NCBI RefSeq assembly: GCF_003991155.1
Contig: NZ_CP031293.1
DNA from: Escherichia coli
GTDB lineage: Bacteria > Pseudomonadota > Gammaproteobacteria > Enterobacterales > Enterobacteriaceae
Direction: 5' to 3' (one strand)
Length of the DNA: 64,000 nucleotides
The translations under genes were made by a program, and so were the position numbers. Shown piece by piece: positions 13,983 to 64,000 of the stretch. The notes under the pieces were generated by a model. It saw only the letters and a program-made list of their open reading frames with translations. It searched no databases and was not told the origin of the DNA. The stretch's first letter is position 1, and each line of letters opens with the position of its first letter.

Positions 13983-14645
13983 TTAAATCGACGTTCTGCC
14001 AAACGCTCCCTGCCAGTCCTGCTCAAACTTCGCCACAGCGGCATCAACCGCCGGATAGCTAATCATCTGTTGTGCCACATCCAGTGGCAGAGTAATTGAT
14101 TCACATCCTGCCAGTAAGCAGTCCAGCGCCTGACGCGGGGTTTTGAAACTCGCGGCTAACACTTTCGCCTGCGGCGCATGCATTTTCAATAACTGGTGTA
14201 AGTCGGTCACAGTCTGAATACCGCTACCGCCCTGAGCATCAATACGATTAACGTAAGGCGCAACATATTCCGCACCTGCCAGCGCCGACAGTAGCCCTTG
14301 TGCTGCGCCATATACCGCGGTTCCCAGCGTCGGAATCCCTTCCGCTTTTAACATCTTAATCGCTGCCAGCCCCTCGGCGGTCACCGGAACTTTCACCACG
14401 ATATCCGCAATAATAGAACGCAGCTTAAGCGCGTCATTCACCATCCCTTCGGCAGTGGTAGCCATTACCTGGGCAAACAGACGCCCCTGACCGCCCATCG
14501 CCTCGTGAAGTTGCGGAAGCACAACCTCCAGCGGTTTTTTACCCGCGGCGATAATGCTTGGGTTAGTGGTCACACCCGCCAGCGGAAAAATACGTGACAG
14601 CGCCTTCACCGCAACAACGTCTGAAGTATCCAGATACAGTTCCAT
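13983..14645 (-). CDS. fsaA: Fructose-6-phosphate aldolase 1 (start at [10 protein letters not shown], 220 aa)
   Basis: Transaldolase-like sequence; the internal ATG has a gaggatgg SD, so the longer ORF (to 14717) is rejected. Confidence 0.88.
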
Positions 14646-14775
14646 AACCATCCTCAAAATGTACTTTTTGTCTGAATGTAGACTATCACGGGAAAACTCT
14701 CTGAACAGTTGACGCACATCAATCTAACTTTCATTCGAAAGTATTTTAATGTTTGAACGAAACAGAGAGGCAACT

Positions 14776-19225: not shown

Positions 19226-20485
19226 ATGACTTTTTCCTGTGAGACGCTGCCCACAGATGCGAAAGCGGCTATCCGAGAGATGAAAGCTGCGCTGCGAGGA
19301 CAGCTCGGTGATGTGCAACAGGTTTTCGATACACTCTCTGCAAAAATCGAAACGCGTGTTGCTGAAATCGATGCCCTAAAAGCGCAAGGGCTGCCGGTTT
19401 GGCCGGAAGTTTCTTATAGTGATATTGCCGCAGGTACAGTAAGCGATGCCACTCGCAATGAAATTAAACGTCGCGGCTGTGCAGTCATAAAAGGCCATTT
19501 CCCTCGCGAGCAGGCGATGGCGTGGGATCGTGCCATGCTCGATTATCTTGATATCAATCATTTTGATGATGTTTATAAAGGCCCTGGCGACAGTTTTTTC
19601 GGCTCGCTGGAGGCTTCTCGTCCCGAAATCTATCCCATTTACTGGTCGCAAGCACAGATGCAGGCGCGGCAGAGCGAAAACATGGCTGCTGTGCAATCTT
19701 TTCTAAACCGACTGTGGACGTCTGAAAGCAACGGCAAACAGTGGTTTAATCCTGATATCAGTGTGATTTATCCAGACAGGATCCGCCGCCGCCCTCCAGG
19801 TACTACATCTAAAGGCCTGGGCGCGCATACCGATTCTGGTGCGCTGGAACGGTGGTTATTACCCGCTTATCAGCGCGTTTTTGCCAATGTGTTTAATGGT
19901 AATTTCGATGATTACGATCCCTGGGATGCAGCACACCGGACCGATGTCGAAGAGTACACGGTAGATAACACTACAAAATGTTCGGTGTTCCGCACGTTTC
20001 AAGGCTGGACGGCGCTCTCTGATATGTTATCGGGTCAGGGATTGTTACATGTGGTGCCTATCCCGGAAGCGATGGCGTATGTTTTATTGCGCCCGCTGCT
20101 GGATGACGTACCGGACGATGAACTGTGCGGGGTTGCACCTGGCAAAGTTCTGCCCATTTCAGAGAAATGGCATCCACTACTGCTTAAAGCGCTGACTTCC
20201 ATTCCCGCGATAACAGCAGGGGATTCCGTCTGGTGGCACTGCGATGTGATTCACTCCGTCGCGCCAGTAGACAATCAACAGGGTTGGGGCAACGTGATGT
20301 ATATCCCTGCTGCGCCAATGTGCGAGAAAAATCGGGCTTATGCACACAAAGTCAAAATGGCGCTGGAAAAAGGCGCATCACCTGGCGACTTCCCGCGGGA
20401 AGATTATGAAGCAAACTGGGAAGGCCGCTTTACGCTGGAGGATCTGAACATTCACGGTAAGCGCGCACTGGGCATGGATGTTTGA
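19226..20485 (+). CDS. ybiU: DUF1479-family protein YbiU
   Basis: 419-aa ORF; recognised sequence and synteny. Confidence 0.88.
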   Translation: MTFSCETLPTDAKAAIREMKAALRGQLGDVQQVFDTLSAKIETRVAEIDALKAQGLPVWPEVSYSDIAAGTVSDATRNEIKRRGCAVIKGHFPREQAMAWDRAMLDYLDINHFDDVYKGPGDSFFGSLEASRPEIYPIYWSQAQMQARQSENMAAVQSFLNRLWTSESNGKQWFNPDISVIYPDRIRRRPPGTTSKGLGAHTDSGALERWLLPAYQRVFANVFNGNFDDYDPWDAAHRTDVEEYTVDNTTKCSVFRTFQGWTALSDMLSGQGLLHVVPIPEAMAYVLLRPLLDDVPDDELCGVAPGKVLPISEKWHPLLLKALTSIPAITAGDSVWWHCDVIHSVAPVDNQQGWGNVMYIPAAPMCEKNRAYAHKVKMALEKGASPGDFPREDYEANWEGRFTLEDLNIHGKRALGMDV

Positions 20486-20567
20486 GAGTTAATGGAAGTG
20501 AATTGATGTGGGATTAAGAAAATCGATTCGACGTTACTCAGATTGCTGACAAATGCGCTTTGTTAAT

Positions 20568-20601
20568 GCCTGATGCGGCGTTAACGCCTTATCCGGCCTA
20601 C
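20568..20601. repeat. REP (repetitive extragenic palindromic) element
   Basis: gcctgatgcggcgttaacgccttatccggcctac matches the E. coli REP consensus. Confidence 0.8.
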
Positions 20602-47304: not shown

Positions 47305-48669
47305 TTACTGCGCAGCGGCAGGTTTACGCGGACGGCGACGGCGTTGTTGTTCGCCTGCCGGTTTGGCATCACCAAGACGACGAGATGTTTTTTCTGCGGG
47401 CTTCGCGCTAGCTGATTTCGCACCACCTTCTCCACGGCGTGGTTGCTGTTGACCGCGACCACCACCTTGCCCACGACCGCCGCCGCCACGTTGCTGGCGA
47501 CCATTCTGGATTGGTTCCGCTTTGATTGACGGGTCCGGCTCATAGCCAGGAATCGCAATGCGCGGGATCTCTTTTTTCAGCAGTTTTTCGATATCACGCA
47601 GCAGTTTGTGTTCATCAACACACACCAGCGACAACGCTTCACCGGTAGCAGCCGCACGACCGGTACGCCCGATACGGTGGACATAATCTTCCGGTACGTT
47701 TGGCAGTTCATAGTTGACCACGTGCGGCAGCTCTTCAATATCCAGGCCGCGCGCAGCGATGTCAGTTGCCACCAGTACACGAATATCGCCCGATTTAAAA
47801 TCAGCCAGCGCACGGGTACGCGCACCTTGCGATTTATTGCCGTGGATCGCCGCACTGCGGATGCCATCTTTATTGAGCTGTTCAGCCAGATGGTTAGCGC
47901 CATGTTTGGTACGGGTAAACACCAGCACCTGCTGCCAGTTCCCTTTCCCAATCATATGCGACAGCAATTCGCGTTTGCGTTTCTTATCAACAAAGTGAAC
48001 ATGCTGGGTCACCTGATCAGACGCGGTATTGCGGCGTGCCACTTCGATTTCCAGCGGGTTGTGCAACAGTTTTTCCGCCAGGGCTTTAATATCGTCAGAG
48101 AAGGTCGCGGAGAACAACAGGTTCTGGCGCTTCGCTGGCAATTTTGTTAACACGCGACGGATATCGTGGATAAAGCCCATGTCGAGCATGCGGTCAGCTT
48201 CATCAAGGACGAGGATTTCAACCTGATCCAGCTTCACCGCATTCTGATGTTCCAGGTCCAGCAGACGTCCCGGCGTTGCCACCAGCACATCAACGCCGCC
48301 GCGCAACTTCATCATCTGCGGGTTAATGCTGACACCGCCAAACACCACCAGCGAACGGATATTCAGGTATTTGCTGTAATCACGGACGTTTTCGCCAATC
48401 TGCGCCGCCAGTTCACGGGTTGGGGTAAGAATGAGCGCACGTACCGGACGACGCCCTTTGGCGTGCGGCTGGCGAGTGATCAGGTGTTGCAACAGCGGCA
48501 GCGTAAAGCCCGCTGTTTTGCCGGTACCGGTCTGGGCGCTGGCCATCAGGTCGCGGCCTTCCAGCACCGCAGGGATCGCCTGCTGCTGAATAGGGGTGGG
48601 TTCACGGTAACCCTGCTCGGCAACGGCGCGCAGGATATCAGGGCTTAAACCCAAAGAATCGAAAGACAT
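47305..48669 (-). CDS. rhlE: ATP-dependent DEAD-box RNA helicase RhlE
   Basis: 454-aa ORF with Q-motif, Walker A (AQTGTGKT), DEAD box and a basic Gly/Arg-rich C-terminal tail. Confidence 0.93.
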
Positions 48670-58955: not shown

Positions 58956-59660
58956 TTAACGGCGGTTGCCGAAGATCCGCAGCAACATCAGGAACAGGTT
59001 GATGAAGTCCAGATACAAGGTCAACGCGCCAAGAATGGAATATTTGCGCAGGTTCGACGTGTCGCGGGTATCAATCTGCTCACCCATATTTTTCAGTTTC
59101 TGGGTGTCATACGCCGTCAATCCGACAAAGACAATCACGCCGATGTAGGTAACTGCCCACATCAACGCTTCGCTTTTCAGCCAGAAGTTGACCAGCGATG
59201 CCAGCACAATGCCGATCAACGCCATAAACAGCATATTGCCGAAACCACTTAGATCGCGCTTCGTGGTGTAACCGTACAGGCTCATTGCGCCGAACATCCC
59301 GGCAGTAACGACGAAAGTACTGGCGATAGAAGCAGCGGTATAGACAATGAAAATACTGGAAAGCGTCAGGCCAGTCAGCGCGGAATAAAGCATAAAGAGC
59401 ATCGTCGTTACACCTGCGCTCAGCTTTTGAATCATCGCTGATAACACAATAACCAGAGCTAATTGTGCTATTACCAGACCAATTAAAAAGATGCGGTTGG
59501 TGAATAATAGCTCCATAACGGCCGCGGAATTAGCCGCATACCAGGCAACAAACGCAGTAAGCAGCAAGCCTACTGTCATCCAGCCATAGACCTGTGCCAT
59601 ATAGGTTTGCAGGCCAGTTCGGGTTTGTACGATTGAATCAGAACGTGGGAATCTGTCCAT
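58956..59660 (-). CDS. ybhL: BAX inhibitor-1/YccA-family inner membrane protein YbhL (start at MDRFPRSD)
   Basis: 234-aa paralogue of the preceding gene. Confidence 0.85.
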   Translation of the reverse strand: MDRFPRSDSIVQTRTGLQTYMAQVYGWMTVGLLLTAFVAWYAANSAAVMELLFTNRIFLIGLVIAQLALVIVLSAMIQKLSAGVTTMLFMLYSALTGLTLSSIFIVYTAASIASTFVVTAGMFGAMSLYGYTTKRDLSGFGNMLFMALIGIVLASLVNFWLKSEALMWAVTYIGVIVFVGLTAYDTQKLKNMGEQIDTRDTSNLRKYSILGALTLYLDFINLFLMLLRIFGNRR

Positions 59661-59758
59661 GACGATCTCCTGAAGATATAAGGAATATCTTAAGGATACT
59701 GCAAAATGATGAGGCTGTGCATCGACGCAGCGTAAACGCATATACTGAGCGGTGAAAT

Positions 59759-59786
59759 TGCCGGACGCAGCGGTGCCTTATCCGGC
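59759..59786. repeat. REP-like palindromic element downstream of moaE
   Basis: gccggacgcagcggtgccttatccggc resembles the REP consensus (GCCGGATG...CCTTATCCGGC). Confidence 0.45.
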
Positions 59787-59796
59787 TAACAAAAAA

Positions 59797-60249
59797 CTAC
59801 CAGCGTTTTGCCGCCTGCTGATCGCTCTCCCGAGCTTCGACCCAGCGGTCGCCTTCCGGCGTGGCTTCGCGCTTCCAGAACGGTGCGCGGGTTTTGAGAT
59901 AATCCATAATAAACTGCCCGGCTTCAAACGCACTGCTGCGATGCGCACTGGTGACACCGACAAAAACGATTTCATCGCCCGGCCATAATTCCCCGATGCG
60001 GTGAATCACCGTGACGCGCCCCAGCGGCCAGCGGTTACGCGCTTCATCGACAATTTCTGCCAGTGCTTTTTCAGTCATCCCCGGATAGTGTTCGAGGGTT
60101 AATGCTTTGACGCTGTCGCCAAGGTTATGGTTGCGCACCTTACCGGTAAAGGTGACTACCGCACCGTCTTCATCACGCTCCGCCAGCCACGGATACTCTT
60201 CTCCTACGCTGAACGGCTGCGGGCCGACAACAATTTTGGTTTCTGCCAT
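59797..60249 (-). CDS. moaE: Molybdopterin synthase catalytic subunit MoaE
   Basis: 150-aa ORF; recognised sequence. Confidence 0.93.
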   Translation of the reverse strand: MAETKIVVGPQPFSVGEEYPWLAERDEDGAVVTFTGKVRNHNLGDSVKALTLEHYPGMTEKALAEIVDEARNRWPLGRVTVIHRIGELWPGDEIVFVGVTSAHRSSAFEAGQFIMDYLKTRAPFWKREATPEGDRWVEARESDQQAAKRW

Positions 60250-60250
60250 C

Positions 60251-60496
60251 TTAACCTCCGGTTACCGGCGGGAAGAAAGCCACTTCGTCGCCGTCAGTCA
60301 GCGGATGGTCAAAACTCACCAGCGTCTGGTTGACGGCAGCCAGCAATTTGCCATCTTCCAGCGCCAGCGCCCAGCGATCGCTCTGCGCAGCCAGGTGCTG
60401 GCGTAACGCTTCAACGGTTGGGAAATCCGCAGCTACTTCGGTTGCATCTGTTCCTACCAACTCGCGCACCTGGGCGAAAAAAAGAACTTTAATCAT
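60251..60496 (-). CDS. moaD: Molybdopterin synthase sulfur-carrier subunit MoaD (81 aa, C-terminal GG)
   Basis: Ends ...FFPPVTGG; start at MIKVLFFAQ. Confidence 0.92.
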
Positions 60497-60974
60497 CCGC
60501 TTCCACCTTAAAGTCACCTGATTTGCCGCCACTCTTTGCCAGCAAACGTACCGGACCAATCACCATATCTTTTTGCACCGCTTTGCACATGTCATAAATG
60601 GTCAGCGCCGCCACGGAGGCCGCGGTTAATGCTTCCATTTCGATACCGGTTTTCCCGGTCAGGCGGCATAAGGTTTCTATACGTACCCGATTGTGCTCCG
60701 GCTCAGCCTGTAAATTGACTTCAACTTTGCTGAGCATCAGCGGGTGACACAGCGGGATCAGATCCCAGGTGCGTTTTGCCGCCTGAATACCGGCAATACG
60801 CGCAGTGGCAAATACGTCGCCTTTGTGGTGGCGACCATCAATAATCATCGCCAGCGTCTCGCTGCGCATGGTAACAAAGGCTTCGGCGCGCGCTTCACGC
60901 ACGGTTTCCGCTTTGGCGGAGACATCCACCATGTGCGCTTCGCCAGCGGCGTTGATATGGGTCAGTTGCGACAT
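60489..60974 (-). CDS. moaC: Cyclic pyranopterin monophosphate synthase MoaC
   Basis: 161-aa ORF; recognised sequence. Confidence 0.93.
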
Positions 60975-60976
60975 AC

Positions 60977-61489
60977 TTATTTCTTCAAATGTGGATGGAA
61001 ATTACACGGACGCGTACGGGCATCCAGCTGCGGCGCAATGATATTTTCCCATGCGGTACGGCACGCTTTGGTCGAACCCGGCATGGCGAAAATCAGCGTT
61101 TTGTTAGCGACGCCCGCTACCGCACGAGATTGCAACGTGGAAGTGCCAATCTCTTCGAACGACAACATCCGGAACACTTCACCAAAACCTTCAACTTCAC
61201 GGTCGAACAACGGCAGCAGCGCTTCGGGAGCCTGATCTCCTTCCGTCAGGCCAGTCCCCCCCGTAATCAATACCACTTGTACATCGTCGCTGGCGATCCA
61301 CGCAGATACCTGAGCGCGAATAGCGTAGCGGTTTTCTTTCACAATGGCTTTATCGACAACGTGATGGCCCGCTTCTTGCGCCGAGTCGCGCAGATAGTGA
61401 CCGGAGGTATCGTCTTCTTCACCGCGACGATTAGAAACCGTAAGAATAGCAATACGGGTCGGGATAAATTCAGTGCTTACCTGACTCAT
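60977..61489 (-). CDS. moaB: Molybdenum cofactor biosynthesis protein MoaB
   Basis: 170-aa ORF, MogA/MoaB fold. Confidence 0.93.
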
Positions 61490-61510
61490 CTGATCTCTCC
61501 TTTTGACGTT

Positions 61511-62500
61511 TTAGCCGCCAATGTACGATAAGTTTTGCGTAATACCGGTGTTGTTTTGATGCAGGAAATGGGTCTGTTTCTTCTCCCGCAGCGCCGCTGA
61601 AATACGCGCTTCCAGCGCCTGTTGCTGGGTATCGTCTTCCAGCAGATCGCGCAGGTTAACGCCGCCTTCACCAAACAGGCAGAGATGGAGTTTACCAATG
61701 GAGGAAACGCGCAGGCGGTTGCAAGTGGCGCAGAAGTCTTTTTCATACGGCATGATAAGGCCAATCTCTCCGGCGTAATCCGGATGACAAAAGACTTGCG
61801 CGGGACCGTCGCTGCGTTGACGTAATTGGTGGATCCAGCCGCGACGCAGTAACTCGTCACGCAGAACCTGACCAGAGATGTGATGCTTACGGAAGAGCTC
61901 GCTGCCCTCGCCCGTCTCCATCAGTTCGATGAAACGCAGCTGGATGGGACGATGCTGGATCCAGTTCAGAAAGGTGTCGAGCTGATGATGATTAACATCA
62001 CGCATCAGCACGGTATTGACTTTGACCTTCTCAAAACCGGCCTCAAATGCAGCATCGATTCCTGCCATGACCTGGTTGAATTTATCCTGCCCGGTAATGG
62101 CATGAAACTGGCGGGCGTCCAGACTATCAACGCTGACGTTGATGCCAGTAAGTCCAGCATCGCGCCAGTTCGCCACATCGCGTTCCAGACGGTAACCATT
62201 GGTGGTGACCGCAATCTGGCGGATAGCGTCGTTTTCTCGCACAGCGGCGATGATATCGGTAAAGTCGCGGCGTAAAGACGGCTCACCGCCCGTCAGACGG
62301 ACTTTTTCGGTGCCCAGACTGGCGAAGGCGCGCGTAACCCGGCGAATTTCATCGACGGTAAGAAAGCCTTTATTGGTGACGCCGCTCGGTTTGTAGCCAT
62401 CCGGCAGGCAGTAGGTGCAACGAAAGTTACACACATCGGTAATCGACAGGCGCAAGTAGTAAAACTTACGCGCAAATGCATCAGTCAGTTGTGAAGCCAT
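61511..62500 (-). CDS. moaA: GTP 3',8-cyclase MoaA (radical SAM), start at MASQLTDAF
   Basis: CNFRCTYC cluster motif; 329 aa. Confidence 0.93.
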
Positions 62501-62504
62501 GTAC

Positions 62505-62645
62505 ACCTTTCCAGATACGGGAGGCGAAGTCATTTCTTCCTTCGCCCTGGTGGCAATCTTTACGAGCATTGTCACGGCCAAAGCACCGTATCAGTTGACC
62601 CAGGTGCAGAGGCTAGAGTGTTTAGTGGTTAAGCCGATACTAGCG
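62505..62645 (-). ncRNA. Molybdenum cofactor (Moco) riboswitch candidate in the moaA 5' leader; ends approximate
   Basis: Established knowledge that the E. coli moaABCDE leader carries the Moco RNA motif. The leader here is about 140 nt, structured and GC-rich, and ends in a GCCUCCC segment near the RBS. Not verified with a covariance model. Confidence 0.55.
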
Positions 62646-62836
62646 TGTAAATGAGATTTTTACCATCCACACTTTCGCTATGTAATCATGTATATAGCGT
62701 CATGATCGTGCTATTTCGCTACAGAATAAGGGAAAATGGCGGTTTTACTTTGATATACATCATCAGGAAGGCATAGCGTACATCGTCCTTTAGAGGTAGA
62801 AGAAAATAGTTTGTATCCTCAATATTGGCAGGTTAA

Positions 62837-63805
<969 letters not shown>

Positions 63806-63842
63806 CACGAAGCCGGAAGAATATTCCGGCTTCGTCATCTTG

Positions 63843-64000
63843 TCACGACGCGGCAATAAACAAATCACGCAACTGATGCAACTGGTCACGAATTTGCGCC
63901 GCTTCTTCGAACTCCAGATTCTGCGCGTGTTGCATCATCAACCCTTCCAGTTCATGGATCTTCTGCTGCAACGCTTTAGGCGACATATCCATCGGCACAT
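63843..64000 (-). CDS. uvrB: Excinuclease ABC subunit B (UvrB), C-terminal ~52 codons; remainder outside the window
   Basis: Minus-strand translation ends ...[47 protein letters not shown], the UvrB C-terminal UvrC-interaction region. Confidence 0.85.

Follow-up and report, generated by a model that had tools for sequence, protein, structure and literature searches.

The closest described counterpart of the locus analyzed here is the moaA leader of Escherichia coli K-12, studied as the "138 moaA" and "149 moaA" RNAs (Regulski et al. 2008, PMC2408646). A Moco riboswitch before moaA is already known; it was described in 2007-2008, is held in Rfam, and is routinely annotated by the NCBI pipeline. 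The K-12 RNA has stems P1 to P5, with P3 present and GAAA on P4, and it carries its Shine-Dalgarno sequence in P1, ahead of moaABCDE and downstream of ModE and FNR sites. When a translational fusion containing the 149-nt moaA RNA was driven from lacUV5, induced Moco synthesis led to more than 3-fold repression (Regulski et al. 2008, PMC2408646). Mutant M1, in which P3 is disrupted, lost this repression, and the compensatory mutant M2 regained it. Repression was also lost in moaA, mogA, modC, and moeA knockouts and was kept in a mobA knockout, and tungstate gave no repression in E. coli and could not replace molybdate (PMC2408646). The position of the ribosome binding site within P1 implies an OFF switch (Regulski 2008, PMC2408646; Fig. 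3 legend and text).

Further layers of control have been documented for the same leader. Two transcription starts are described, S1 at 131 nt ahead of the moaA start codon and S2 at -87, with ModE controlling S1 and FNR controlling S2 (Anderson 2000, as cited in PMC2408646), and a ModE site upstream of S1 has been reported (PMC2408646). Translation of moaA is activated by CsrA, which has two binding sites within the aptamer and appears to act by freeing the Shine-Dalgarno sequence (Patterson-Fortin et al. 2013, as summarized in PMC7652899). A fusion of the moaA 5' untranslated region (UTR) and open reading frame was more than 2-fold higher in a rho R66S strain (Adams et al. 2021, PMC7815308). 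The supplementary tables of that study put a region of Rho readthrough at K-12 position 817336, inside moaA, which corresponds to about 62208 in the coordinates used here. An in-cell structure-ensemble study lists the riboswitch among the regions that are conformationally heterogeneous once refolded in vitro (PMC13271884). The moaA leader is a documented case in which an aptamer responding to a small molecule is coupled to Rho and also serves as a binding site for CsrA, a global RNA-binding protein.

Two other groups of leaders invite comparison. The tungsten-cofactor (Tuco/Wco) variants share with the present element the family model, the junction, P2, P4, and P5, but they are without P3, which the present element has as a hairpin. 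The Rho-coupled translational OFF riboswitches of E. coli, of the thiM or ribB type, and the guanidine-II sugE leader (PMC7815308) likewise sequester the Shine-Dalgarno sequence in a ligand-dependent manner, and Rho-dependent termination within the leader or the early coding region likewise follows. Their aptamer folds and ligands differ from those of the Moco element, whose ligand, unlike theirs, is without an in vitro binding demonstration and whose aptamer is bound by CsrA as well.

Identity and extent of the element

The window analyzed here is a stretch of 64,000 nucleotides from a non-K-12 strain of E. coli, and all positions refer to it unless otherwise stated. When the whole window was searched with cmscan against 4,227 Rfam families at gathering thresholds, one match to RF01055 (Moco RNA motif; family name, molybdenum/tungsten cofactor riboswitch aptamer) was obtained on the minus strand (Table 1). 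The match is 145 nt long; its score, 103.4 bits, exceeds the curated gathering threshold of 36 by 67 bits, and its E value is 1.2e-24. It is full length, covering model positions 1 to 135 of 135 without truncation. RefSeq record NZ_CP033850.1 carries a feature "molybdenum cofactor riboswitch" at locus positions 3779-3923, which is exactly 62632-62488 in the window, directly before moaA to moaE. A rescan of 59000-64000 with permissive settings again returned the RF01055 match and no other RNA family, and nothing relevant emerged when the surroundings of the riboswitch were searched for further RNA families, tRNAs, and tandem repeats.

An initial annotation, made by a reader without tools, had put a probable Moco riboswitch in the moaA leader at 62505-62645 and had named a covariance-model scan of the minus strand with the Rfam model as the check. 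The score given above bears out that assignment, on the predicted strand, and RefSeq agrees with it; the full-length match extends over the moaA start codon. The interval itself was right in large part, with 128 nt in common with the 145-nt element, but the true span is 62488-62632. The earlier interval stopped 17 nt short at the 3' end, leaving out 62504-62502 (the final three positions of the P1 3' strand), the AUG (62500-62498), and the 13 nt at the beginning of moaA that belong to the model, and it took in 13 extra nucleotides, 62633-62645, that precede the published S1 start and contain a -10-like TAGTAT. The description of the leader as GC-rich did not hold: the match has 50.3% G+C, compared with 51.8% for the earlier interval, 51.6% for the whole window, and 53.9% for moaA, and it is richer in G+C solely than the remaining intergenic DNA (40.5%). 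A long leader reaching to the divergent ybhK had also been described; the intergenic region is indeed 396 nt long (62501-62896, with ybhK/yvcK starting at 62897 on the plus strand), but the riboswitch occupies just the 131-nt 5' UTR nearest moaA. The riboswitch therefore makes a useful positive control, the known element having been placed within about 15 nt.

The region is nearly uniform in E. coli. Using window positions 62380-62910 as a 531-nt query, we found it in 5,424 of 5,426 complete E. coli genomes, 4,223 of them at 99% identity or higher. The search returned 5,437 matching places, 2 of them on plasmids, and 2 of the 5,426 complete genomes gave no match. Over 901 nt around the locus, 15 differences separate the window from K-12 MG1655. 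The sole one within the Rfam match is at 62632, its first base, where K-12 has A and the window T; this base is unpaired and sits at the S1 start or immediately before it. The sequence from 62631 to 62488 is identical to that of MG1655, so the published experiments on the K-12 RNA apply to the window sequence unadjusted. The element in the window is the E. coli moaA Moco riboswitch itself, the founding experimental example of RF01055.

Table 1. Coordinates of the riboswitch, its stems, and the associated genes and control sites. Stem positions are the Rfam consensus structure projected onto the window sequence; K-12 positions were converted to window positions via the moaA start (817044 in MG1655).
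Feature	Position	Strand	Basis or remark
FNR-like site TTGATATACATCAT, 9/10 to TTGAT-N4-ATCAA	62750..62763	.	About 38 nt upstream of S2
S2 start	~62718		Published -87
ModE-type palindrome CGCTATATA-N6-TACATAGCG	62676..62699	.	Pattern match, 1 mismatch
-10-like TAGTAT	62642..62637	-	Read from sequence
S1 transcription start (+1), approximate	62631	-	Published 131-nt distance; second base of Rfam match
Moco RNA motif (RF01055), aptamer and expression platform	62488..62632	-	cmscan; RefSeq; includes first 13 nt of moaA
P1 5' strand AACAC-U-C	62616..62622	-	Structure projection
P1 3' strand GGUGUA	62502..62507	-	Structure projection; overlaps 3' part of Shine-Dalgarno
P1 pairing	62622-62616 with 62507-62502	-	Few weak outer pairs reach 62630 / 62494
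P2 hairpin with internal loops	62577..62613	-	Basal 62613-62603 with 62587-62577
P2 apical helix	62599-62597 with 62592-62590	-	Structure projection
P3 hairpin	62550..62575 (62575-62571 with 62554-62550)	-	16-nt loop; 5 model pairs, 4 standard here
P4 hairpin	62522..62547 (62547-62537 with 62532-62522)	-	GAAA tetraloop cap 62536..62533
P5 (CC/GG, 7-nt loop)	62511..62521 (62521-62520 with 62512-62511)	-	Structure projection
Shine-Dalgarno region GGAAAGGUG	62504..62512	-	Read from sequence; purine tract
moaA start codon AUG	62498..62500	-	RefSeq CDS start (locus position 3911); ORF list
Abundant RNA 3' end (K-12 817052, +9 of moaA)	62492	-	PMC7815308 supplementary tables; 3' edge of fold
moaA (GTP 3',8-cyclase), first regulated gene	61511..62500	-	ORF list; RefSeq
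moaB	61489-60977	-	ORF list; RefSeq
moaC	60974-60489	-	ORF list; RefSeq
moaD	60496-60251	-	ORF list; RefSeq
moaE	60249-59797	-	ORF list; RefSeq
Other RNA matches on the Budvicia diplopodorum L063 contig (positions of that contig)	6-154, 431-518, 14446-14685		Rfam check

Architecture of the aptamer and its expression platform

All five stems, P1 to P5, were placed around the conserved multistem junction (Table 1). P5 belongs to an invariant core, CCUCCC-N5-UGGAAAGG. The expression platform is recognizable: the Shine-Dalgarno region GGAAAGGUG spans the 3' strand of P5, the P5-P1 junction, and the 3' strand of P1, and ends 4 nt before the AUG, which is the arrangement given for the K-12 moaA RNA (Regulski et al. 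2008, PMC2408646). A terminator scan found no terminator-like hairpin within the moaA leader. P3 correlates with Moco use and is absent from members of the tungsten-cofactor type (PMC2408646), and its presence here therefore places the element in the Moco-type subgroup and not in the tungsten-cofactor-type one.

The sequence-testable defining features of RF01055 are all present, with one exception, the P2 tetraloop receptor, which in Enterobacteriaceae departs from the canonical sequence. The canonical 11-nt tetraloop receptor is CCUAAG...UAUGG. At the corresponding position in P2 the window reads CCUGGG...UACGG, in which the bulge is present and the AA platform of the canonical receptor is absent. 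The GAAA loop that would be its partner was read directly from the window sequence.

Relatives and covariation

Relatives were sought with the core pattern AGGG-N5-14-GAAA-N5-14-CCTCCC-N5-TGGAAAGG in a collection with one genome per species. The scan returned at least 120 loci from many phyla; among the matches listed were loci from Bacillota, Chloroflexota, Actinomycetota, Acidobacteriota, and proteobacterial classes. Of the gammaproteobacterial loci, 20 were run against Rfam, and all 20 proved to be RF01055, with scores of 81 to 105 bits; the score of the window element is near the top of this range. Among the matches listed, 116 instances had at least 150 nt of downstream sequence, and a MoaA homolog followed on the same strand in 57 of them, 49 of these within 120 nt. 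In the gammaproteobacteria among these matches, MoaA starts 2 to 25 nt after the motif, often followed by MoaB, MoaC, MoaD, or MoaE. The contig of Budvicia diplopodorum that bears a moa riboswitch also carries CRISPR-DR4 repeats, a C4 antisense RNA (P1/P7 phage type), and a cspA thermoregulator, all unrelated to the riboswitch.

The 20 gammaproteobacterial loci and the window sequence (21 in all) were aligned with MAFFT, which is blind to structure, and the Rfam pairs were then counted. In register, 79.2% of cells held standard pairs, compared with 34 to 45% when the 3' partners were slid by 1 to 3 columns. Cells in which both sides had changed numbered 133, compared with 58 ± 6 in shuffles, and none of 500 shuffles reached the observed value. 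The covariation score was 0.395, compared with about 0.09 to 0.14 in the slid registers. Pairs changed on both sides made up 8 of 11 in the basal part of P2, 2 of 3 in its apical part, 3 of 5 in P3, and 8 of 11 in P4, where 90% of cells were paired. P2, P3, and P4 covary, and their pairing is kept through compensatory changes.

The remaining stems behaved differently in the same alignment. P1 was paired in 58% of cells, with weak covariation, which is due at least in part to a one-column offset of its 5' strand by MAFFT, the enterobacterial sequences reading ACACUCUAGCC and the others AACUCCGAGCU. No variation was seen in P5 or the junction, which is partly forced by the search pattern. An independent run of RNAalifold recovered P2 in part, all of P3, most of P4, and a P5-like hairpin shifted by one column, and at P1 it gave two inner-end pairs, one of them a model pair.

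The alignment also bears on the tetraloop receptor. The P4 GAAA loop is kept in all members, as the search pattern forces it to be. At the receptor position, Escherichia albertii and Citrobacter have the sequence found in the window, and Enterobacter and Pluralibacter have CCUGUG...UAUGG. Most of the 16 members from outside the Enterobacteriaceae carry CCUAAG, which resembles the receptor, together with a UA-N-G 3' half. Divergence of the receptor, at 62603-62599 and 62590-62586 on the minus strand, is thus common to the five Enterobacteriaceae members of the alignment. In-line probing of the ligand-free E. coli RNA left much of P2 unsupported (PMC2408646), and the divergence may relate to this poorly formed P2.

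Folding calculations

The leader had been described in the initial annotation as structured. This stands by the covariance model and by covariation, whereas the folding energy does not show it by itself: at a minimum free energy of about -42 kcal/mol, the z score is -1.57, and 14 of 200 shuffled sequences were at least as stable. Single-sequence folding does not recover the consensus fold, as P1 and P2 are not reproduced. Because of this, and because z is only -1.57, the folding energy is unusable for or against the element. In the minimum-free-energy structure given by ViennaRNA (-42.8 kcal/mol), the 5' strand of P2, UGCACCU, is predicted to pair with AGGUGUA of the Shine-Dalgarno/P1 region; this alternative helix is a prediction only. 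With P2 to P5 enforced (-39.8 kcal/mol), P1 forms spontaneously.

In constrained ensembles computed with ViennaRNA, the probability that the Shine-Dalgarno sequence is unpaired was 0.27 without constraint, 0.31 with the aptamer enforced, and 0.23 in a third state. The Shine-Dalgarno sequence is predicted to be mostly paired in all three states, and nearest-neighbor modeling therefore gives no ON/OFF difference. The predicted pairing agrees with little basal translation and with the need for CsrA that has been reported, and is evidence for neither.

Proposed mechanism and alternative readings

Family membership, architecture, covariation, gene context, and identity to K-12 are established in this analysis. 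We read the moaA leader (minus strand, about 62631 to 62501, with the fold continuing to 62488) as the E. coli Moco riboswitch, a member of RF01055 and a Moco-dependent translational OFF switch, and we put the probability of this reading at roughly 90%. The transcript is supplied by the ModE-dependent S1 and the FNR-dependent S2. It folds into the five-stem aptamer around the conserved multistem junction, with the GAAA tetraloop of P4 probably docking into P2. Under plentiful Moco, the fold with bound ligand would lock P1 and mask the ribosome binding site, and translation of moaA would fall. A genetic OFF switch of this kind would amount to end-product feedback on molybdopterin synthesis. The untranslated mRNA would then be exposed to Rho-dependent termination inside moaA, and CsrA, at its two aptamer sites, would counteract the sequestration of the Shine-Dalgarno sequence. 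We infer that Moco itself binds the RNA.

This last step is where an alternative might enter, in which Moco is sensed indirectly: a Moco- or molybdopterin-binding protein, or a Moco carrier complex, would bind the leader, and the RNA would serve as its operator. The Moco class is one of the few widespread riboswitch classes without demonstrated in vitro ligand binding, and direct binding of Moco to the RNA is unreported in the sources consulted (PMC2408646, PMC10845959, PMC10265488). The original authors left it untried owing to the instability of the cofactor (PMC2408646), a 2024 paper describes the exact Moco-related metabolite as still unidentified (PMC10845959), and a 2023 review cites ligand-free structural work only (Amadei et al. 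2023, in PMC10265488). In addition, CsrA shows that the aptamer has at least one protein partner. However, the same fold precedes Moco-related genes in many phyla, and its junction is highly conserved, as is typical for a ligand pocket. A conserved gene for a partner protein is not known, and Regulski 2008 notes that no protein factor had been found for the moaA leader region (PMC2408646). The presence or absence of P3 also tracks the use of Moco versus the tungsten cofactor, which argues that the RNA itself discriminates. We consider sensing through a protein improbable.

Somewhat different readings concern the RNA product and the ligand. The abundant RNA 3' end at 62492 implies a stable fragment of about 140 nt, which is the riboswitch alone. 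Such an RNA (S1 at about 62631 to 62492), which contains both GGA motifs of the aptamer, might act in trans, as a minor CsrA-titrating RNA or a base-pairing sponge, in the manner of other fragments derived from 5' UTRs in the 3'-end mapping study (PMC7815308). Separately, the ligand might be a Moco-related species and not free Moco. We regard these ideas as quite improbable additions to, or departures from, the reading of the leader as a riboswitch that binds Moco.

The leader could also be viewed as mainly an attenuator that responds to CsrA and Rho, CsrA setting translation and Rho premature termination, with its Moco dependence secondary or indirect. CsrA binds two aptamer sites and activates moaA translation, as described above, and the aptamer contains only two GGA motifs, at 62540-62538 in the apex of P4 and at 62512-62510 in the Shine-Dalgarno/P5 region, which presumably represent these sites. 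The elevated expression in rho R66S, the Rho readthrough region inside moaA, and the prediction that the Shine-Dalgarno sequence is largely paired even without the aptamer fold all point in the same direction. These layers are, however, documented as additions to Moco-dependent control and not as replacements for it; repression of the lacUV5-driven fusion needs both the Moco pathway genes and P3 pairing. The supplementary table gives the 3' end at moaA +9 a Rho score of just 1.24, which is low, and marks it "No" (PMC7815308), and CsrA is limited to some lineages, whereas the motif is far more widespread. We find it very improbable that the leader is mainly such an attenuator.

A chance resemblance or a non-functional remnant in ordinary intergenic DNA, to which only the non-significant folding energy would lend itself, is ruled out by the full-length covariance-model match (E = 1.2e-24) and by covariation across genera, and it would have to be squared with near-universal presence in E. 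coli genomes and with published genetics on the identical sequence.

Upstream control region and neighboring sequences

The control sites reported for K-12 have likely counterparts upstream of the element. The palindrome CGCTATATA-N6-TACATAGCG was the single match in the window to the ModE consensus, which we take to be that of the modA operator, and no match occurred in 100 shuffles. From its sequence and position, the palindrome is likely the ModE operator of promoter S1. The FNR-like site near S2 is weak when taken alone, as the window holds 8 such sites with at most one mismatch, compared with 2.8 expected, and no shuffle reached 8. They lie at 4620, 4992, 6455, 14709, 19548, 35832, 41359, and 62750, and those at 19548 (TTGATATCAATCAT) and 41359 (TAGATATCAATCAA) are near-palindromic. 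A generic sigma-70 promoter scan of 62400-63000 gave no site, as is expected because S1 and S2 are activator dependent.

Several other signals were noted in the course of the analysis. A terminator-like match at 62912-62899 on the minus strand, inside the start of ybhK, was judged to be a chance match (0.5 expected). Two plus-strand open reading frames that run antisense across the riboswitch, 62499-62654 (51 amino acids) and 62476-62598 (40 amino acids), were likewise set aside as chance, with no annotation or other support. Elsewhere in the window there are weak tandem repeats at 47442-47502 (period 24, 2.5 copies, 67% match) and at 20562-20597 (period 18, 2 copies), which are probably repeats within coding sequences.
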